A DNA stretch of 42,923 nt from Octopus sinensis (taxonomy: Eukaryota), in the NCBI RefSeq assembly GCF_006345805.1, contig NW_021835328.1, positions 1-42,923 of the forward strand, written 5' to 3'. The translations under genes and the position numbers were made by a program. The notes beneath the pieces were generated by a model. The model was given only the letters and a program-made list of their open reading frames with translations. It made no database searches and was not told the origin of the DNA. This document shows, in pieces, positions 2,780 to 41,169 of the stretch (positions within the stretch are counted from its first letter, which is position 1; each line of letters opens with the position of its first letter).

Positions 2780-5700
2780 CTTTTTTTTTTCTTCTTTCAA
2801 ATTTGCTTCCATTTCTTGCCGAGTGTCTTCCCGACTCCTAGGGCAAAGAAATTCATAGTATACATTGGTAGGCCATTAAACCAAACTCAATAGTTCGTTC
2901 ATTTTTTTTTTTTTTTTTTAAGTTAAATTAAAATACATGAGCAGCAACAGTTCTCACATCGACAATGCTCTTCTCAATACGTGTGATGTACCAGTTAAGA
3001 CAATCTTTTGCACTTCTTGCAGGGATGGTAAGCCAGGGATCATTCTCATATAATTTTCGGTTCCCTTCTTGATCATTCCTAGTGCTCCTACGATCACTGG
3101 TATTGTAACCGCCTTGAGATGCCACATTTTCTCAATTTCAATGAGTAGGTCTTTATATTTTCTGAGCTTGTCAAACTCTTTCGCTGAGATATTATGATCA
3201 CAGGTGATGCTCATGTCGATCAATAAGCAAACTTTATTGTTTTGGTCTTTCACAACAATATCTGGTTTATTGGCCTTGATGGTTCGGTCTGTATGTACTG
3301 GAAAGTCCCACAGAATGGTTACATTTTCTCCTTCAGTTACAGACTCAGGGTGGTGATTATACCACTTGTCGGCAGTTTTGATATTGTAATGCCGACTTAT
3401 TAGCCAGTGTAGATATTGGCCAAATCTGTCATGTCTTAATTTATACTCCACTGGAGCTAAGACTTTACATCCAGAGATTAGGTGTCCACTGTTTCAATCA
3501 TGTCGTTGCAGAATCGGCATTTTGGGTCTGCTCCATTTTTCATCACATTGGCCTGGTAGTTCCGGGTTAATAGGCTTTGATCTTGAGCAGCCAGGATGAA
3601 ACTTCGCTCTCTGCTTTTAGCCCTGAGCTCCGTAGCCACTGATGGGTTTGCTTCTGGTCAACATCAGCTTGTTTGCTGCGGGTCACATATTTGCCGTGCA
3701 GAGGTTTCTCCTCCCACCTATCAGCCAATTGCTCGTGCGTTTTTTTCATTGCCATCATTTTCACCTTTTTGCAACTATAGTTGCCGTACTTCCCTCGGGT
3801 TGTTCAGTTTGGGTATCTGCACGAGATCAATAGCAAATTTTTTGCTTTCCTTTATGATAGAATGAAGCTTCTTTCGTCTCTCGTGATTTCCACGAGCTTT
3901 AGCATCCAGTCATTCGATATTTCGAGATATTGGCCAGTCCAATTGTGGTTGTTTTGTAAGCTAGTTCAAATTGGATCAGGCCTCGACCTCCTTGGGCTCT
4001 GGGAAGGTAAAGGCGATCTACGTCTGCCTTTGGGTGGTGCATCCTATTACAACTCAGCAGCTTGCGTATTTTCCTACCTATATTCTTTACTTCACTCATA
4101 TTCCAGTTCAACACATTGTAGCTATAAGTAACAACTGGAACTGCTAAGGAATTTATAGCTAACACCTTGTTACGTGCATTTAGTTCAGATTTCAGGACTG
4201 CACGAACTCCTATAACATTCCTTCCTGATCTTTCTTTCATGCTTGCATGCTGAATACCAGAGCCTTCATTTATCCCTAAATATGTGTATGTTTGTTCTTG
4301 CTCAAGCTCTCTTATGACTGTGTCAACATCTAACACGACTGAATTTGTGGTCTTCACTTTCCCTTTCTGGAAAGTCGCCTTGGCACACTTCTCAAGTCCA
4401 AACTCCATCCCGATGTCATCGCTGAATGCTTTCACAGTGCACAATAGGCCTTCAAGTTCATTATTGTCTTTACCATAAAGTTTTAAGTCATCCATATAAA
4501 ATAGATGGCTTATTTTTTTATTGGCAATTTTATACCCATACCTGTTCTGTTTAATTCACTTGTAAGGGGTATTAGGGCTATGCAGAATATTAAAGGTGAA
4601 AGTGAGTCACCTTGAAAAATTCCACAGTTGTGTTTATATTTTCTGAGGCAAGTACTCCATTAGAGTGGTATAATTGGAGATTCGTATTCCACAACGACAT
4701 ATTGTGCTTCAGGAAGTTTGAAATCACAGGGGAAATTTTGAAGATGTCCAGCGATCTCAAGATCCATGGATGCGGTATACTGTCGAAGGCCTTTTTATAG
4801 TCAATCCATGCGGTGCTGAGATTTCTGCGCTTGTTGTGACAGTTCTCAAGGATCATACGATTGATTAGCAGTTGATCTTTGCATCCGTATGAGCCTCGGC
4901 GGCACCCTTTTTGTTCAATGGGGAAAATATCGTTCTTCTCCATGAATGCATATGTTTTCTCCGCCAGGATAGATGTTAGGATTTTATACGTGGTGGATAG
5001 ACAGGTTATAGGCCGATAGTTTTTTGGAAGGTTGGTTTCGTTTTCTTTGGGAGTAGGTAAGTAATGCCACTTGCTAACCATTCAGGTGTTTTCTTTGGGT
5101 CTCTCATAATTCCATTGAGCAGCTGAACTAGCTACCGTGTGCGCATGGGAGCGATGCGAGCCAGAAATTCGGCACCCTATCTTTACCGGGGGATTTCCAA
5201 TTATGGGCCTTCGTGAGTGCCTTTCTTAGGTCTGTTATTGTGATGTCTTCCCATGCTTGTTGTTGTAAATTTTGGTAGGATCCTTCAGTTTGTATAATCC
5301 AGTCTACATTTATGTTGTACGTCTTCTTGTCACTTCCAAATACTTTTCCAAAAGTTTTGAACTTCTTCCATGGGAGGGGGGTCTTTAACGGTTACTTTCT
5401 CCTTCCCTATTTCTCTGTAGAATTTTTTGGCATTGGATGTGAACAGCTTATTTTGCTTGTAAAACTTATTTCTCTCCTCAAATCTTCGTATTCTTTGCGC
5501 TTTTGCTTGGACTTTTTGTTTCAGCGTTTCTTTTATTGATATCAGTTCTTCTCTTGGTGAGGATCCAAATTTTCTCTTCATCTTTCTTCCTGTTCTGGAT
5601 CTTACATCATTTCCACATATTAGTTCATTTAATATTGTTATTTCCCCTCTCATAAATTCAATCTCTTTTTCAATTTTACTTCTCCAGGTTTGATTTCTTC

Positions 5701-5826
5701 CCAGGTTTTGTTTTCTTTGTTTTTTCGGGGGCATACAGCTGGTTTCAATTGCCCTAGCAGAAGCGTAAATAATTTCATTTAACTCAGTAAAATCAGGTTT
5801 TAATTCTCGTATTATTTCATTTGTTA
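2780..5826 (-). mobile_element. 5'-truncated R4/Dong-clade non-LTR retrotransposon (RT + CCHC + restriction-like endonuclease)
   Basis: Collinear minus-strand motifs: NWKSPGKD (~5190), NYRPITCL, EQKGCRRG, WIDYKKAFDS, GIFQGDSLSP (~4595-4623), FYMDD (4487-4501), YTYLG, CRFC..ETV.HLISGC (~3465-3520), RHD, ILWDF..TD..IKANKPDIVV..LIDMS..K..KY and IPVIVGALG. The 3' UTR ends in an A-run plus (TAA)n, and (TAA)n also flanks the 5' end. Confidence 0.93.
2954..5826 (-). pseudogene. Frameshifted reverse transcriptase / RLE polyprotein ORF of the Dong-like element
   Basis: ORF pieces 5330-5734, 4590-5081, 3899-4495, 3567-3764 and 2954-3451 are consecutive parts of one protein, broken mainly by single-base frameshifts. 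Confidence 0.9.
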
Positions 5827-5839
5827 CATAGATGTAACA

Positions 5840-5884
<45 letters not shown>

Positions 5885-6440
5885 TGAGTGAGAGAGCAGT
5901 GCATGCCATCAAAGTGACACTGGGGTAAAATATACGAAGTCCAGTATACCCATCATGACTACCCGTCTGATAAGGGTACACCAGGCACATGCATCACAAC
6001 CATATGTGCACGAGATGGTGGTCTCATATCAAGATAAACAGCACATGACCTTGCAGGTGGGGCCCAGTTAGAATTTTCTTCTGGTCGAGTAATATACCCC
6101 GCTTAAAAGGTCCCTGAATAAGGGTTGTTTAAGGATGTTGAACGAATCACCTATGTTTCCAAATGTGAATTATTCAAACCCCAAAGAATCCTTCTCAACA
6201 CATGGCTATGATGCTCCCCCACTACTTCTGCTCGTGATCAGAGATGCACATATCGTCAGCCACTAAGGGACATGCTCAACTGATTAAGGCCAAACAACTG
6301 ACAAGCAAATCTGTGGTGTTGAGTAGAATATTTGCTGTAGCCCATCTTTTATACCAAGACAAAACAATAGACATGATAACACTTCCAATCAGTTAAGATC
6401 AGAAGCCATGAGAGCCACTGCCTGGTACTGCATCAGGGCA
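5885..6440 (-). mobile_element. ~550-bp non-coding interspersed element inserted in (TAA)n, copy 1
   Basis: Near-identical to 21660-22189 over its full length and flanked by (TAT)n at 5841-5884 and 6441-6560. Strand is inferred from the TAA orientation. Confidence 0.85.
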
Positions 6441-10559: not shown

Positions 10560-10815
10560 GTCATAAATTTAATTTACTGCATCAAATGCGCAAATTGTGA
10601 AGAATTATATATTGGTCAGACTGAAAATGCACTAACAGAACGTTCACGCATGCACCGGCAGCAAATTAGAGACCCACATGTCCGTCAGATGCCTTTGAGT
10701 AACCATCAGCAACATGCGGTCGGAAAATACTTATAATATTTTCATTCTACAAAGTACACAGTCCAAGTGAAATTGAGAGAAAATTCAGAGAAAATAATTT
10801 TTTCAATAAATTCCT
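10560..10815 (+). pseudogene. GIY-YIG endonuclease fragment of a Penelope-like retroelement
   Basis: Reads VINLIYCIKCANCEELYIGQTENALTERSRMHRQQIRDP...PLSNH and then FSFYKVHSPSEIERKFRENNFFNKF. This gives the LIY..C..C..YIG(Q)T..L..R...H motif plus the C-terminal R..(K/R)E..F..KF, and it starts directly after (TA)n. Confidence 0.85.
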
Positions 10816-17617: not shown

Positions 17618-17808
17618 GTATATATATATTATATATATATTTATATATATATAATTTTTTATTTTTAACTTTTATATTTTTAAATTAATTTTATGTATTG
17701 GATTAAGTCTTCTTTGTTTGATTTGCATAATAGTGGTTTTGTCTCTAATTAATATTATATATATATATATATTACATACATATATAATATATATATATAT
17801 ATTATATA

Positions 17809-17840
<32 letters not shown>

Positions 17841-17848
<8 letters not shown>

Positions 17849-18698
17849 TTAGCAATTAAGGACAACTACTTAATAAGGAAAACCTTAACAAGAAAATTGT
17901 CAGGTAGATAGCGTAAAAACCTCATAAGAGAAAAAATTTTCGAAATAATTATTTCTTATTGAACATATTAATTTATATATAGAGGGCATTAATACATACA
18001 TGCCAGAAGGCATTATAACCTACATGCCAAACGCTAAGAGGGACAATTAGTCATTTCTACCAAATATTACTAATCCCACCGAATGCAATTTTTCAAGTAA
18101 GACATTTAAAAAAATATAGACCTGTATCACAGTGATTTCATACTTACGTACTCACGCATACTTACGCATGTATGTATAATGCCTTCTGGCATGTATGTAT
18201 AATGCCCTCTATATATAAATTAATATGTTCAATAAGAAATAATTATTTTCGAAATTTTTTTCTCTTATGAGGTTTTTACGCTATCTACCTGACAATTTCT
18301 TGTTAAGTTTTCCTTATTAAGTAGTTGTCCTTAATTGCTAAATTTTTATTCCGAAAAACTTTTCCTCTCCCGAAATGCAATTCGTAAAAGTTTGCCATTT
18401 ATCCGGATGTAATATATGTAAACTCACCCATGTGCTTCGTTGATGTTGATCAGTTAGCTGATCGGCTTAAGCGGGGCAGGGTCGTTGTTTATTCATAATA
18501 CATTCAGGCCTGCTGATGAGTACGTAAGTATGAATCACTGTGAACAGGTCTATATTTTTTTAAATGTCTTACTTTGAAAAATTGCATTCGGTGGGATTAG
18601 TAATATTTTTTGGTAGAAATGACTAATTGTCCCTCTTAGCGTTTGGCATGTATGTATAATGCCTTCTGCATGTATGTATAATGCCCTCTATATATAAA
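17841..18698 (+). mobile_element. Hammerhead-containing non-autonomous Penelope-like/retrozyme-like element: 480-bp unit with terminal direct repeat plus 5' inverted copy, in (TA)n
   Basis: Forward A(18166-18349)-B-C(18517-18645)-A'(18646-18698), while 17841-18154 is the reverse complement of C+A. Hammerhead at 18506-18551 and (TA)n on both flanks. Confidence 0.8.
18506..18551 (+). ncRNA. Type I hammerhead ribozyme motif
   Basis: AGGCCTG-CTGATGA(18513-18519)-GTAC-GTAA-GTAT-GAA[A]-TCAC-T-GTGA-[T]A-CAGGTCT. The bracketed bases are missing here but present in the inverted copy (18119-18154: GAAATCACTGTGATACAGGTC). Stem I is 7 bp, stem II 4 bp, and stem III near-palindromic. Confidence 0.75.
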
Positions 18699-18784
18699 AT
18701 ATATATATATATATATATATTTATACATATATGTATGTATATATATATATATATATAATATATATATATTTATACATATATATG

Positions 18785-18908
<124 letters not shown>

Positions 18909-37170: not shown

Positions 37171-38142
37171 AGAGGCGGCAAGCTGGCAGGATCGTTAGCA
37201 CGCCGGGCGAAATGCGTCGCCGTATTTCGTCTGCCGTTACGTTCTGAGTTCAAATTCCGCCGAGGTCGACTTTACCTTTCATCCTTTCGGAGGTCGATAA
37301 ATTAAGTACCAGTTACGCACTGGCGACGATATAATCGACTTAATCCGTCTGTCTGTCCTTGTTTGTCCCCTCTGTCTTTAGCCCCTTGTGGGTAGTAAAG
37401 AAACAGGTATTTCGTCTGCCGTTACGTTCTGAGTTCAAATTCCGCCGAGGTCGACTTTGCCTTTCATCCTTTCGGGGTCGATAAATTAAGTACCAGGTAC
37501 GCACTGGGGACGATATAATCGACTTAATCCGTCTGTCTGTCCTTGTTTGTCCCCTCTGTCTTTAGCCCCTTGTGGGTAGTAAAGAAACAGGTATTTCGTC
37601 TGCCGTTACGTTCTGAGTTCAAATTCCGCCGAGGTCGACTTTGCCTTTCATCCTTTCGGGGTCGATAAATTAAGTACCAGTTACGCACTGGGGACGATAT
37701 AATCGACTTAATCCGTCTGTCTGTCCTTGTTTGTCCCCTCTGTGTTTAGCCCCTTGTGGGTAGTAAAGAAACAGGTATTTCGTCTGCCGTTACGTTCTGA
37801 GTTCAAATTCCGCCGAGGTCGACTTTCCCTTTCATCCTTTCGGAGGTCGATAAATTAAGTACCAGTTACGCACTGGGGACGATATAATCGACTTAATCCG
37901 TCTGTCTGTCCTTGTTTGTCCCCTCTGTGTTTAGCCCCTTGTGGGTAGTAAAGAAACAGGTATTTCGTCTGCCGTTACGTTCTGAGTTCAAATTCCGCCG
38001 AGGTCGACTTTCCATTTCATCCTTTCGGGGTCGATAAATTAAGTACCAGTTACGCACTGGGGACGATATAGTCGACTTAATCCGTTTGTCTGTCCTTGTT
38101 TGTCCTCTCTATGTTTATCCCCTTGTGGGTAGTTAATAAATA
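37171..38142 (+). mobile_element. SINE family B with body amplified into 5 x 184-185 bp tandem units, flanked by a 16-bp TSD
   Basis: The head GGCGGCAAGCTGGCAGGATCGTTAGC occurs once, units starting GTATTTCGTCTGCC lie at 37222, 37407, 37591, 37775 and 37960, and GATATACGGTCGCCCA lies at 37155-37170 and 38143-38158. Confidence 0.92.
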
Positions 38143-38171
38143 GATATACGGTCGCCCATATCTGACGGAGT

Positions 38172-38449: not shown

Positions 38450-38777
38450 AATAATTTACAAGATAAGGGCAAAAGAAAAAATTCTAATGCCAAATATGCC
38501 GGAAAAAAGACAAAAATTGTCAATAACCATTATAATTTATGCGTCTCAAAACAAACCGATTGAAATCTCTAAAAAATTCGTTATTACCTTATTGGTCCAA
38601 TTTCGGGGTTAATTCACAAGAAATTTCCCCTCTTCAGCGGTAAAAACGAATTTTTTAGAGATTTCTATCGGATTGTTTCGAGACGCATAAATTATAATGG
38701 TTACTGACAATTTTCGTCTTTTTTTCGGCATATGTGGGATTAGAATTTTTTCTTTTGCCCATATCTTGTAAATTATT
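38450..38777. mobile_element. Foldback/MITE-like inverted repeat, ~139-bp arms with a 50-bp spacer (second copy ~40081-40411)
   Basis: 38450-38588 is the imperfect reverse complement of 38639-38777. Confidence 0.85.
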
Positions 38778-39001
38778 TATAAATTTAACCTTTAAAGGTA
38801 TTTTTTGAAATGCTGGCCATTGATAAAAAAATTTTCCGAAAAAAATTTTTTATCCTTCATTAGTTATATATGTATGTATGTATGTATATATAATATGTGC
38901 GTATATATACATATGTATATGTACAAGTATACATACTTACACACACAAACGGATATATACACACATACAGACATATATATGAATGTATACATATGTGTGC
39001 A

Positions 39002-39768: not shown

Positions 39769-41169
39769 GATATACGGTCGCCCATATCTGAACGGAGTGG
39801 AAGCGCAATGGCCCAATGGTTAGGGCAGTGGACTCGCGGACGAAGGATCGCGGTTTCGATTCCCAGACCGGGCGTTGTGTTTGTTTATTGAGCGAAAACA
39901 CCCAAATTCTCCACAAAGCTCCGGCAGGGGGTGGTGGCGACCCCTGTTTTATTCTTTCGCCCCAACTTTCTTCTCTCTCACTCCTCTTCCTTTTTCTTGA
40001 GTAACGCTGCGATGGATTGGCGTTCTGTCCAGCTGGGGGGGGGGGGCAACGTGCGCCAAAAAAAAAAATATAATGTATGTAATAATTTACAAGATAAGGG
40101 CAAAAGAAAAAATTCTAATGCCAAATAATGCCGGAAAAAAGACAAAAATTGTCAATAACCATTATAATTTATGCGTCTCCAACCAAACAACCGATTGAAA
40201 TCTCTAAAAAATTCGTTATTACCTTATTGGTCCCAATTTCGGGTTATTCACAAGAAATTTCCCCTCTTCAGCGGTAAAAACGAATTTTTTAGAGATTTCT
40301 ATCGGATTGTTTCGAGACGCATAAATTATAATGGTTACTGACAATTTTCGTCTTTTTTTCGGCATATGTGGGATTAGAATTTTTTCTTTTGCCCATATCT
40401 TGTAAATTATTTATAAATTTAACCTTTAAAGGTATTTTTTGAAATGCTGGCCATTGATAAAAAAATTTTTCCGAAAAAAATTTTTTATCCTTCATTAGTT
40501 ATATATGTATGTATGTATGTATATATATATATATGTGCGTATATATACATATGTATATGTACAAGTATACATACTTACACACACAAACGGATATATACAC
40601 ACATACAGACATATATATGAATGTATACATATGTGTGCATCATGATTGTAAGGTTGTGGTTCGATTCCTGGACCGGGCGACGCGTTGTGTTCTGGAGCAC
40701 AACACTTCATTTCACATTGGTCCAGTCCACTCGGCTGGCAAAATGAGTAACGCTGCGATGGACTGGCGTCCCGTCCAGCTGGGGAACACATACGCTATAG
40801 AAACCGGGAAACCGGCCCATGAGCCTTAAAGGCTTTAAAAGGGTGCATCTATCTATCTATATGCATTGCACGCGTGTACGGCGTGCGTTGTGTTTTGCAA
40901 AAGACAGAGGGATAGATGATAGGTTTATTTATGCATGTCTATATGTATATATATATATAATGGAAAGTTTACGAAAATAAACAAAAGACAAAGGCAGGTG
41001 AGTACACAACAAACAAATGTATTAGCATAGCGCTCAGGAATAATAATAGAAAATGTCTTTTACGTTCGAGCCTACGCTCTTCGACAGAAGATACACAGAA
41101 AAAAAGGAGAGAAAATATGCGTGTAGGAGCTAACGATCTATCATACACATATATATATTCATATCATAT

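Follow-up and report, generated by a model that had tools for sequence, protein, structure and literature searches.

The element at positions 17841-18698 of the 42,923-nt stretch analysed here (the window) is one damaged copy of a hammerhead-bearing repeat family with a 481-bp unit. We propose that this young family, which has no open reading frame (ORF), is probably spread by the reverse transcriptase (RT)-endonuclease of a Hydra-clade Penelope-like element (PLE), likely by priming on both target strands with a monomer RNA circle as the template. We draw a distinction between the class of element, which is already known, and its insertion record, in which the value of the family lies, as it makes an open mechanistic question testable. 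Strict start-site pairing, independent arm lengths, and one haplotype running through both arms provide genomic evidence that can be counted.

A damaged copy of a repeat family

The layout originally predicted, a forward series of segments A-B-C-A' preceded by an inverted copy, was confirmed by alignment as an inverted left arm (17841-18154, minus strand, 314 nt) and a forward right arm (18166-18698, plus strand, ~533 nt). Positions 17841-18027 and 18166-18349 form an inverted repeat (96%), as do 17965-18154 and 18517-18706 (94%), and 18166-18226 recurs directly at 18646-18706, which gives the claimed period of 480 bp. Both bordering (TA)n tracts are present (17752-17843 on the left, the insertion target, and 18689-18908 on the right), (TA)n being also the usual site of the 41 insertions sampled below, and the reported lack of an ORF holds, every stop-to-stop frame that overlaps 17841-18698 being shorter than 100 aa. 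Numbered from the cleavage site of a natural monomer (L016:1819-2299), the left arm copies unit positions 452-481 and then 1-284, and its outer end is the long site S2, whose signal (a hairpin and then CTTAATTGC; 17852-17901, minus strand) lies immediately before the (TA)n junction. The right arm copies positions 102-481 and then 1-155. It contains an internal, unused S2 (hairpin plus CTTAATTGC; 18291-18349, plus strand) and a type I hammerhead (18506-18551, plus strand), and its terminal A' (18646-18698, plus strand) reaches the short site S1 (GCCCTCTATATATAAA). The outer ends of the window insertion are S2 on the left and S1 on the right.

The predicted type I hammerhead exists in intact form in the family, but neither arm of the window holds a whole one, and the version first described merges both arms into a composite that happens to match the family form. 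The forward copy has the 7-bp stem I, CTGATGA, and the 4-bp stem II, and then reads GAA-TCACTGTGA-A-CAGG, where GAAA is short of one A and U16.1 is absent. What the left arm contains (18118-18154, minus strand) is a 3' part cut off inside CTGATGA: it has stem II, GAAA, ATCACTGTGAT, the palindromic stem III, the UA site, and the 3' strand of stem I, and starts at TGA, lacking both CTGA and the stem I 5' strand. Contrary to the working ribozyme that had been implied, the window's own ribozyme is broken (GAA for GAAA, U16.1 gone); each of the two losses in the forward copy amounts to a 1-nt deletion, possibly an error of the assembly. A covariance-model search, suggested as a check, gave no support: Rfam places no hammerhead in 17841-18698 and, over the whole window, only microsatellite noise among the matches listed (150 of 183), and an intact natural copy reaches 16.6 bits (HH9, E=0.12) against a gathering score of 52.

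Within the family, the core (CUGANGA, GAAA, and NUH, with stems I-III) is intact in 92 of 97 units, so that the consensus retains the GAAA and UH of the original prediction. Its description needs correcting at one point: stems II and III are full, but the G10.1-C11.1 pair conserved in type I hammerheads is absent from the family units (of 102 units, 55 carry U-U, 37 A-U, and 10 G-U, position 11.1 being U throughout), which may make cleavage weak. Between the 481-bp family and a 473-bp sister family (611 matches), four hammerhead pairs are changed on both sides (five rows, one divergence event). On this sequence comparison, pairing is maintained through compensatory changes. The family hammerhead is predicted to be self-cleaving.

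A DNA search of the 2.72-Gb assembly returned at least 107 matches at 87-100% identity, nearly all at 94% or more (39 of 1,073 candidates scored), many of them lying 481 bp apart. A 30-mer spanning the hammerhead cleavage site has 1,698 exact matches and its reversed control has none, so the hammerhead is not there by chance. The natural unit (481 bp, GC 33%) occurs in tandem arrays with one type I hammerhead per unit, and its monomer RNA fold has z=-6.5. Our sample took the first 40 of 42 clusters listed, in order, and comprises 41 insertions; because an exact junction-spanning 30-mer was needed for inclusion, young copies and arms extending across the cut site are over-represented in it. Very rough scaling gives ~800 insertions in the genome. 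An RT/GIY-YIG ORF continuous with the repeat was found in 0 of the 41 sampled insertions (of ~800), and one insertion (L089) sits in TA repeats flanking a Hydra copy that is separate from it. The claim of a non-autonomous, multicopy, tandem, hammerhead-bearing family is thus upheld, and an ordinary pseudo-LTR (pLTR) is not what we find, the repeat being neither single-copy nor attached to an ORF. By every sequence feature tested, the family is a non-LTR retrozyme, a non-autonomous Penelope-like element inserting in (TA)n.

Older sister families form a graded series, at 75-99% to the 473-bp unit and with ends alike (L151-L180, L204:1204-1364, L143:9665-9711), which shows a long-running turnover of the retrozyme lineage. 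The window also contains a two-arm insertion (38450-38866 and 40081-40502) of a third family of hammerhead type, whose likeness to L133/L150 elements is 72-78%. One end of this insertion is short and the opposite end long. The insertion lies within a 1.67-kb tandem duplication (96% identical) and has a hammerhead-like core near 38575-38644 (minus strand, stem I doubtful). Elsewhere, the window holds a broken non-LTR retrotransposon with RVT_1 matches (2954-5908, minus strand) and five tandem copies of a 184-bp SINE-like unit (37222-38147, 97% match), which we take, by its look, to be a cephalopod SINE.

Contigs of 4 of 24 sequencing runs, none of them on record as RNA, contain pieces that bridge the cleavage site, for which a circle, read-through, and DNA look alike. 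Contigs from two runs guessed to be RNA also carry clustered A>G changes at L016:2288-2337 and 1874-1880 (7 of 11 and 8 of 15 changed places), with hammerhead A15.1 and the cleavage-site A among the places changed and several of these at zero depth in a DNA-like run. The clusters look like A-to-I editing of the sense RNA, the hammerhead cluster being one contig of depth 3.5 with no matched DNA.

Two fixed outer ends and independent arms

The outer ends of the insertions fall at S1 (unit positions 154-156) or S2 (275-284), ~122 nt apart. Twenty-eight of the 41 sampled insertions are two-armed and head-to-head, and 13 are one-armed. Among the former, 27 combine S1 with S2, no insertion uses a single site at both ends, and one could not be scored because other sequence interrupts it (p=7.5e-9 at p=0.5); one S1 end (L063) in this 27/27 count was re-assigned by hand, and apparent S1 ends at the first 23-bp repeat were disregarded as false. 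The two orientations of the S1+S2 insertions number 14 and 13, and the one-armed insertions end at S1 (7), at S2 (5), or elsewhere (1). Further top-match loci follow the S1+S2 rule in 17 of 18 cases, L018 ending at 233 (by eye). Scored in the same manner, two-armed insertions of the sister family are S1+S2 in 10 of 13 and never same-site, the other three having one end near S2 and the other at 85-110. This strict one-each pairing of S1 and S2 is the new part of our findings. In the largely open-access literature covered, we found no statement of such a rule or of a 120-nt tail, no cephalopod retrozyme, and no haplotype evidence for rolling-circle reverse transcription.

The 53-bp terminal redundancy of the original prediction is present as a repeat, but it reflects one of the two fixed start sites. 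Hence copies are fixed at their 3' side and not circularly permuted, and the tabulation of ends that was to support permutation instead gave outer (3'-side) ends fixed at S1 and S2. Inner arm ends are scattered over the unit, and most junctions join unrelated positions. Of the 46 inner junctions, 19 show microhomology, 7 are blunt, and 20 carry an insert, which in some cases is an artefact of the linear reference. An apparent pile-up of inner ends at the cleavage site was rejected, its nine entries at position 1 being artefacts of that same kind; counted by eye, positions 476-13 contain ~9 of 92 inner ends, an excess that is weak and post hoc. In the window, the arms are separated by an 11-nt insert, CGCATACTTAC (18155-18165), a local repeat of the end of the left arm; this templated insertion probably arose by end-joining.

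The two arms of an insertion copy the same positions in 25 of 27 cases, and their lengths are uncorrelated (rho -0.002, 27 two-arm insertions). S1 and S2 arms do not differ in length (p=0.68), and the longer arm may end at either site. Six of the 27 insertions, where independent arms would give 6.9, have arms of which neither is contained in the other, and this is also the case in the window. The cleavage site is crossed by 22 S1 arms and 20 S2 arms, and by both arms in 16 of 27 insertions, in a sample whose selection favours insertions crossed by one arm or both; one arm measures 4.9 kb, and arms reach up to 10 units (L075). On a cleaved monomer, the distance to the 5' end is only 155 nt from S1 and ~278 nt from S2, and these lengths are the most that a linear monomer would yield. 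The template longer than one unit, circular or multimeric, that had been deduced from the window therefore stands, given the 16 insertions crossed in both arms and the window arms that are not nested.

Substitutions amount to 0.43% within an arm (167 pairs), 0.56% between the arms of an insertion (127), and 3.65% between insertions (10,325), a within- to between-insertion ratio of ~0.12. Of the variants, 236 are fixed in all covering units, 13 are partial, and 108 are singletons, in counts where assembly polishing could mask differences between units. Seven variants, each private to a single sampled insertion, are fixed across both arms. Together, the shared haplotype and the fixed private variants point to a bottleneck of one unit, most simply a circle. 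The cleavage junction is exact in 101 of 108 instances, with no extra scars relative to controls (65/75 and 94/108), and in one insertion (L079), two columns reveal a mixture of four haplotypes.

Candidate helper, proposed mechanism, and alternatives

The genome carries several young PLE families with long open frames. The helper of the retrozyme is quite likely a Hydra-clade element, as suggested by cis features that the two have in common: the (TA)n target, the one-each rule with its spacing, and, in some of these elements, the end motif and a hammerhead base. The Hydra-clade end motif has 4,489 matches in the genome, and inverted pairs of these elements are short plus long, ~115-120 nt apart, in 25 of 25 scorable cases (of 30, by script, with five unscored), or 22 once three duplicates are removed. 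The long end comes after a hairpin, with the 9-mer CTTAATTGC present in 11 of 43 tails and CTTTATTGC in 22 of 43, and most Hydra-clade hammerheads read GCTGATGAGTAC...GTATGAAA, as does the window's copy. The candidate helpers were assigned to the clade by motifs, hammerhead, and (TA)n target, in comparison with PMC8557442. They have DKT, a CxCx5C linker, and CxxC and CxH around E and N, with RWK in L201, RWR in L206, and neither in L209; by eye, they lack CCHH, and their RT motifs match the published Hydra alignment. Just upstream of the ORF start in L206, a Hydra copy of tandem structure, lie the cleavage site and the two end sites, an arrangement that extends the more-than-unit logic to the autonomous element.

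The S1-S2 stretch aligns with a Hydra tail no better than shuffled sequence does (44.5 against 46.8 +/- 5.5), and no parent pLTR was found among 90 loci around PLE matches (L101-L150, L181-L220), where the matches seen were separate insertions of the 481-bp or older sister families; the helper is thus proposed from function-like features, not from descent. Among at least 120 listed relatives of the candidate helper protein, those of Argonauta hians, the one species named there, have 34-38% identity; together with the look of the SINE-like unit, this makes an octopod cephalopod the likely host. Close relatives of the Hydra protein lie mostly on contigs of 2.2-3.5 kb, about one element long.

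Two other PLEs were rejected as helpers. All 11 3'-complete copies of the abundant 781-aa PLE (L133 type) share a single end point, and its end revealed no hammerhead; the young copy at L133:1374-6153 has a 479-aa upstream ORF, a 781-aa RT-EN ORF, and a one-site end in (TA)n. The 775-aa PLE (L137 type) showed no link to the retrozyme. A PLE GIY-YIG endonuclease fragment in the window (10566-10813), 77-83% identical to the 775-aa family, adjoins a (TA)n tract.

In light of these features, how might the retrozyme be copied and inserted? It is reasonably likely that tandem copies are transcribed, that the type I hammerhead cuts the transcripts, probably as dimers, and that the monomer is ligated. 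Very probably, the helper would nick both (TA)n strands, so that one 3' end starts reverse transcription at S1 and the other at S2; the one-each ends are observed, and reading them as RT starts follows in vitro work on PAc. Each cDNA would then, in our judgement, likely run round the template for a variable length, the lengths of up to 10 units being seen and the circle presumed, and the two cDNA ends would be joined through microhomology or short templated inserts, forms seen at the junctions that suggest the repair route. Arms that are not nested, together with two fixed sites, fit the biochemistry of PAc, which uses two internal RT start sites, cuts and extends both strands, and is a predicted dimer (PMC11167929, cited here, as are the other papers, for selected parts).

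More tentatively, a dimeric Hydra-clade RT-endonuclease on one circular RNA might launch both cDNAs at once from the two strands of a nicked (TA)n tract, one at S1 and one at S2, with both rolling round the circle. If true, this reaction would account for how Penelope-like elements generally come by their pseudo-LTRs, their tandem arrays and inversions, and their one-ended tail, and the 481-nt retrozyme would be a minimal substrate for testing it. The origin of the tandem and inverted structures and of the tail is called undefined in PMC8557442, and circles as PLE RT templates have been proposed, not shown (PMC4209133). Our findings also give the retrozyme a candidate helper, named by its cis features, and with a 481-nt RNA, a (TA)n target, and a protein of 840-950 aa, the model can be tested directly in a PAc-type assay.

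An alternative that we regard as unlikely keeps the two-site priming and makes the template an uncleaved multimeric read-through transcript of an array, the hammerhead being weak or idle. Such a template would suit the non-canonical 10.1-11.1 pair and the L079 mosaic, and the unscarred cleavage junction is equally expected from it; in addition, PAc in vitro did not need hammerhead cleavage, had unprocessed RNA as its main template, and gave no reads ending at the cleavage site (PMC11167929). Arrays copied from a multimer should nonetheless drift inside as fast as between insertions, in conflict with the ratio of ~0.12 and with private variants fixed in all units of both arms. Nor could truncation alone regenerate an arm of 10 units (L075), and an idle hammerhead is at odds with compensatory changes that keep its pairing.

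Still less probable is a single primer whose first cDNA folds back and primes itself, with the second arm then copied from the first and resolution taking place at the other site. Self-priming was put forward for rotifer Penelope (PMC3846280), and it would account for one haplotype in both arms, for a few palindromic junctions (L079, L085b), and for the geometry of 21 of 27 insertions. In the remaining 6, and in the window, the arms are not nested, at the frequency expected of independent arms, which contradicts simple self-priming for these seven unless an extra template switch is added; furthermore, the longer arm may carry either site, and most junctions join unrelated positions. We give least credence, as highly improbable, to the arrays and inversions having arisen by satellite growth at the DNA level (unequal exchange or gene conversion) or as assembly artefacts. 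Unequal crossover has been offered for retrozyme arrays (bioRxiv 10.64898/2026.07.22.740005), and the assembly is rich in 1-nt indels, the window hammerhead included. Neither process sits well with copies dispersed on many contigs with unique flanks, with 3' ends that are fixed and inner ends that vary under a one-each rule, or with ORF-bearing Hydra-clade elements that obey this rule too. Copying from a monomer circle, primed on both target strands, remains the reading that we prefer.

Comparison with known systems

The octopus family resembles metazoan non-LTR retrozymes (PMC7229834; bioRxiv 10.64898/2026.07.22.740005) in its short tandem units with one type I hammerhead each, low GC (here 33%), lack of an ORF, strongly folded monomer, and link to Penelope-like elements. 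Its 481-bp unit is just above the 150-450 bp of the first-described non-LTR retrozymes, and its insertions are mostly head-to-head with fixed one-each ends, whereas the word "inverted" is absent from the main text of PMC7229834. Circular RNA has been demonstrated for the retrozymes of that study, while the octopus repeat is known here from DNA. A retrozyme-PLE link is described in vertebrates, where eight of nine Xenopus retrozyme dimers were uncleaved (bioRxiv 10.64898/2026.07.22.740005). No cephalopod is named in the parts of these two papers drawn on here. Penelope families of O. vulgaris have been counted, with ribozymes unmentioned in the parts drawn on here (PMC13282606), and the repeat library of that study may contain the 481-bp repeat.

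As in Penelope-like insertions (PMC3846280, PMC8557442), the retrozyme has tandem and inverted 5'-truncated arms, an extension or tail at one end, and an AT-rich, here microsatellite, target. The tail is ~122 nt in the octopus retrozyme, in contrast to 30-40 in those studies, where it is optional or often one-ended; it is one-ended in 27 of 27 octopus insertions and in 25 of 25 of the Hydra clade. The likeness to PAc extends to the two RT start sites, the nicking and extension of both strands, and the predicted dimer, but that assay gave no strand difference in start site, and pairing per molecule lay outside it (PMC11167929). The Hydra clade (Craig et al. 2021) shares the (TA)n target and a canonical hammerhead with the retrozyme, and its RWK/RWR, DKT, CxCx5C, CxxC, and CxH motifs with the candidate helpers. 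Hydra elements are known from Octopus bimaculoides (Hydra-1_Obim; PMC8557442 supplement). The octopus candidate helper families differ from Hydra-1_Obim (0 matches in motif searches), and the repeat differs from the Hydra clade in that it lacks an ORF and, taken as a whole, is not significantly similar to those Hydra ends with which it was compared.

In L1 twin priming, both target strands prime cDNAs that are joined through microhomology to give an inversion. Of the two L1 primers, one uses the poly(A) tail and the other a variable site, and there is no overlap between the arms. In the retrozyme described here, by contrast, priming would take place at two internal sites of fixed position, and in 25 of 27 insertions the same unit positions are copied by both arms.
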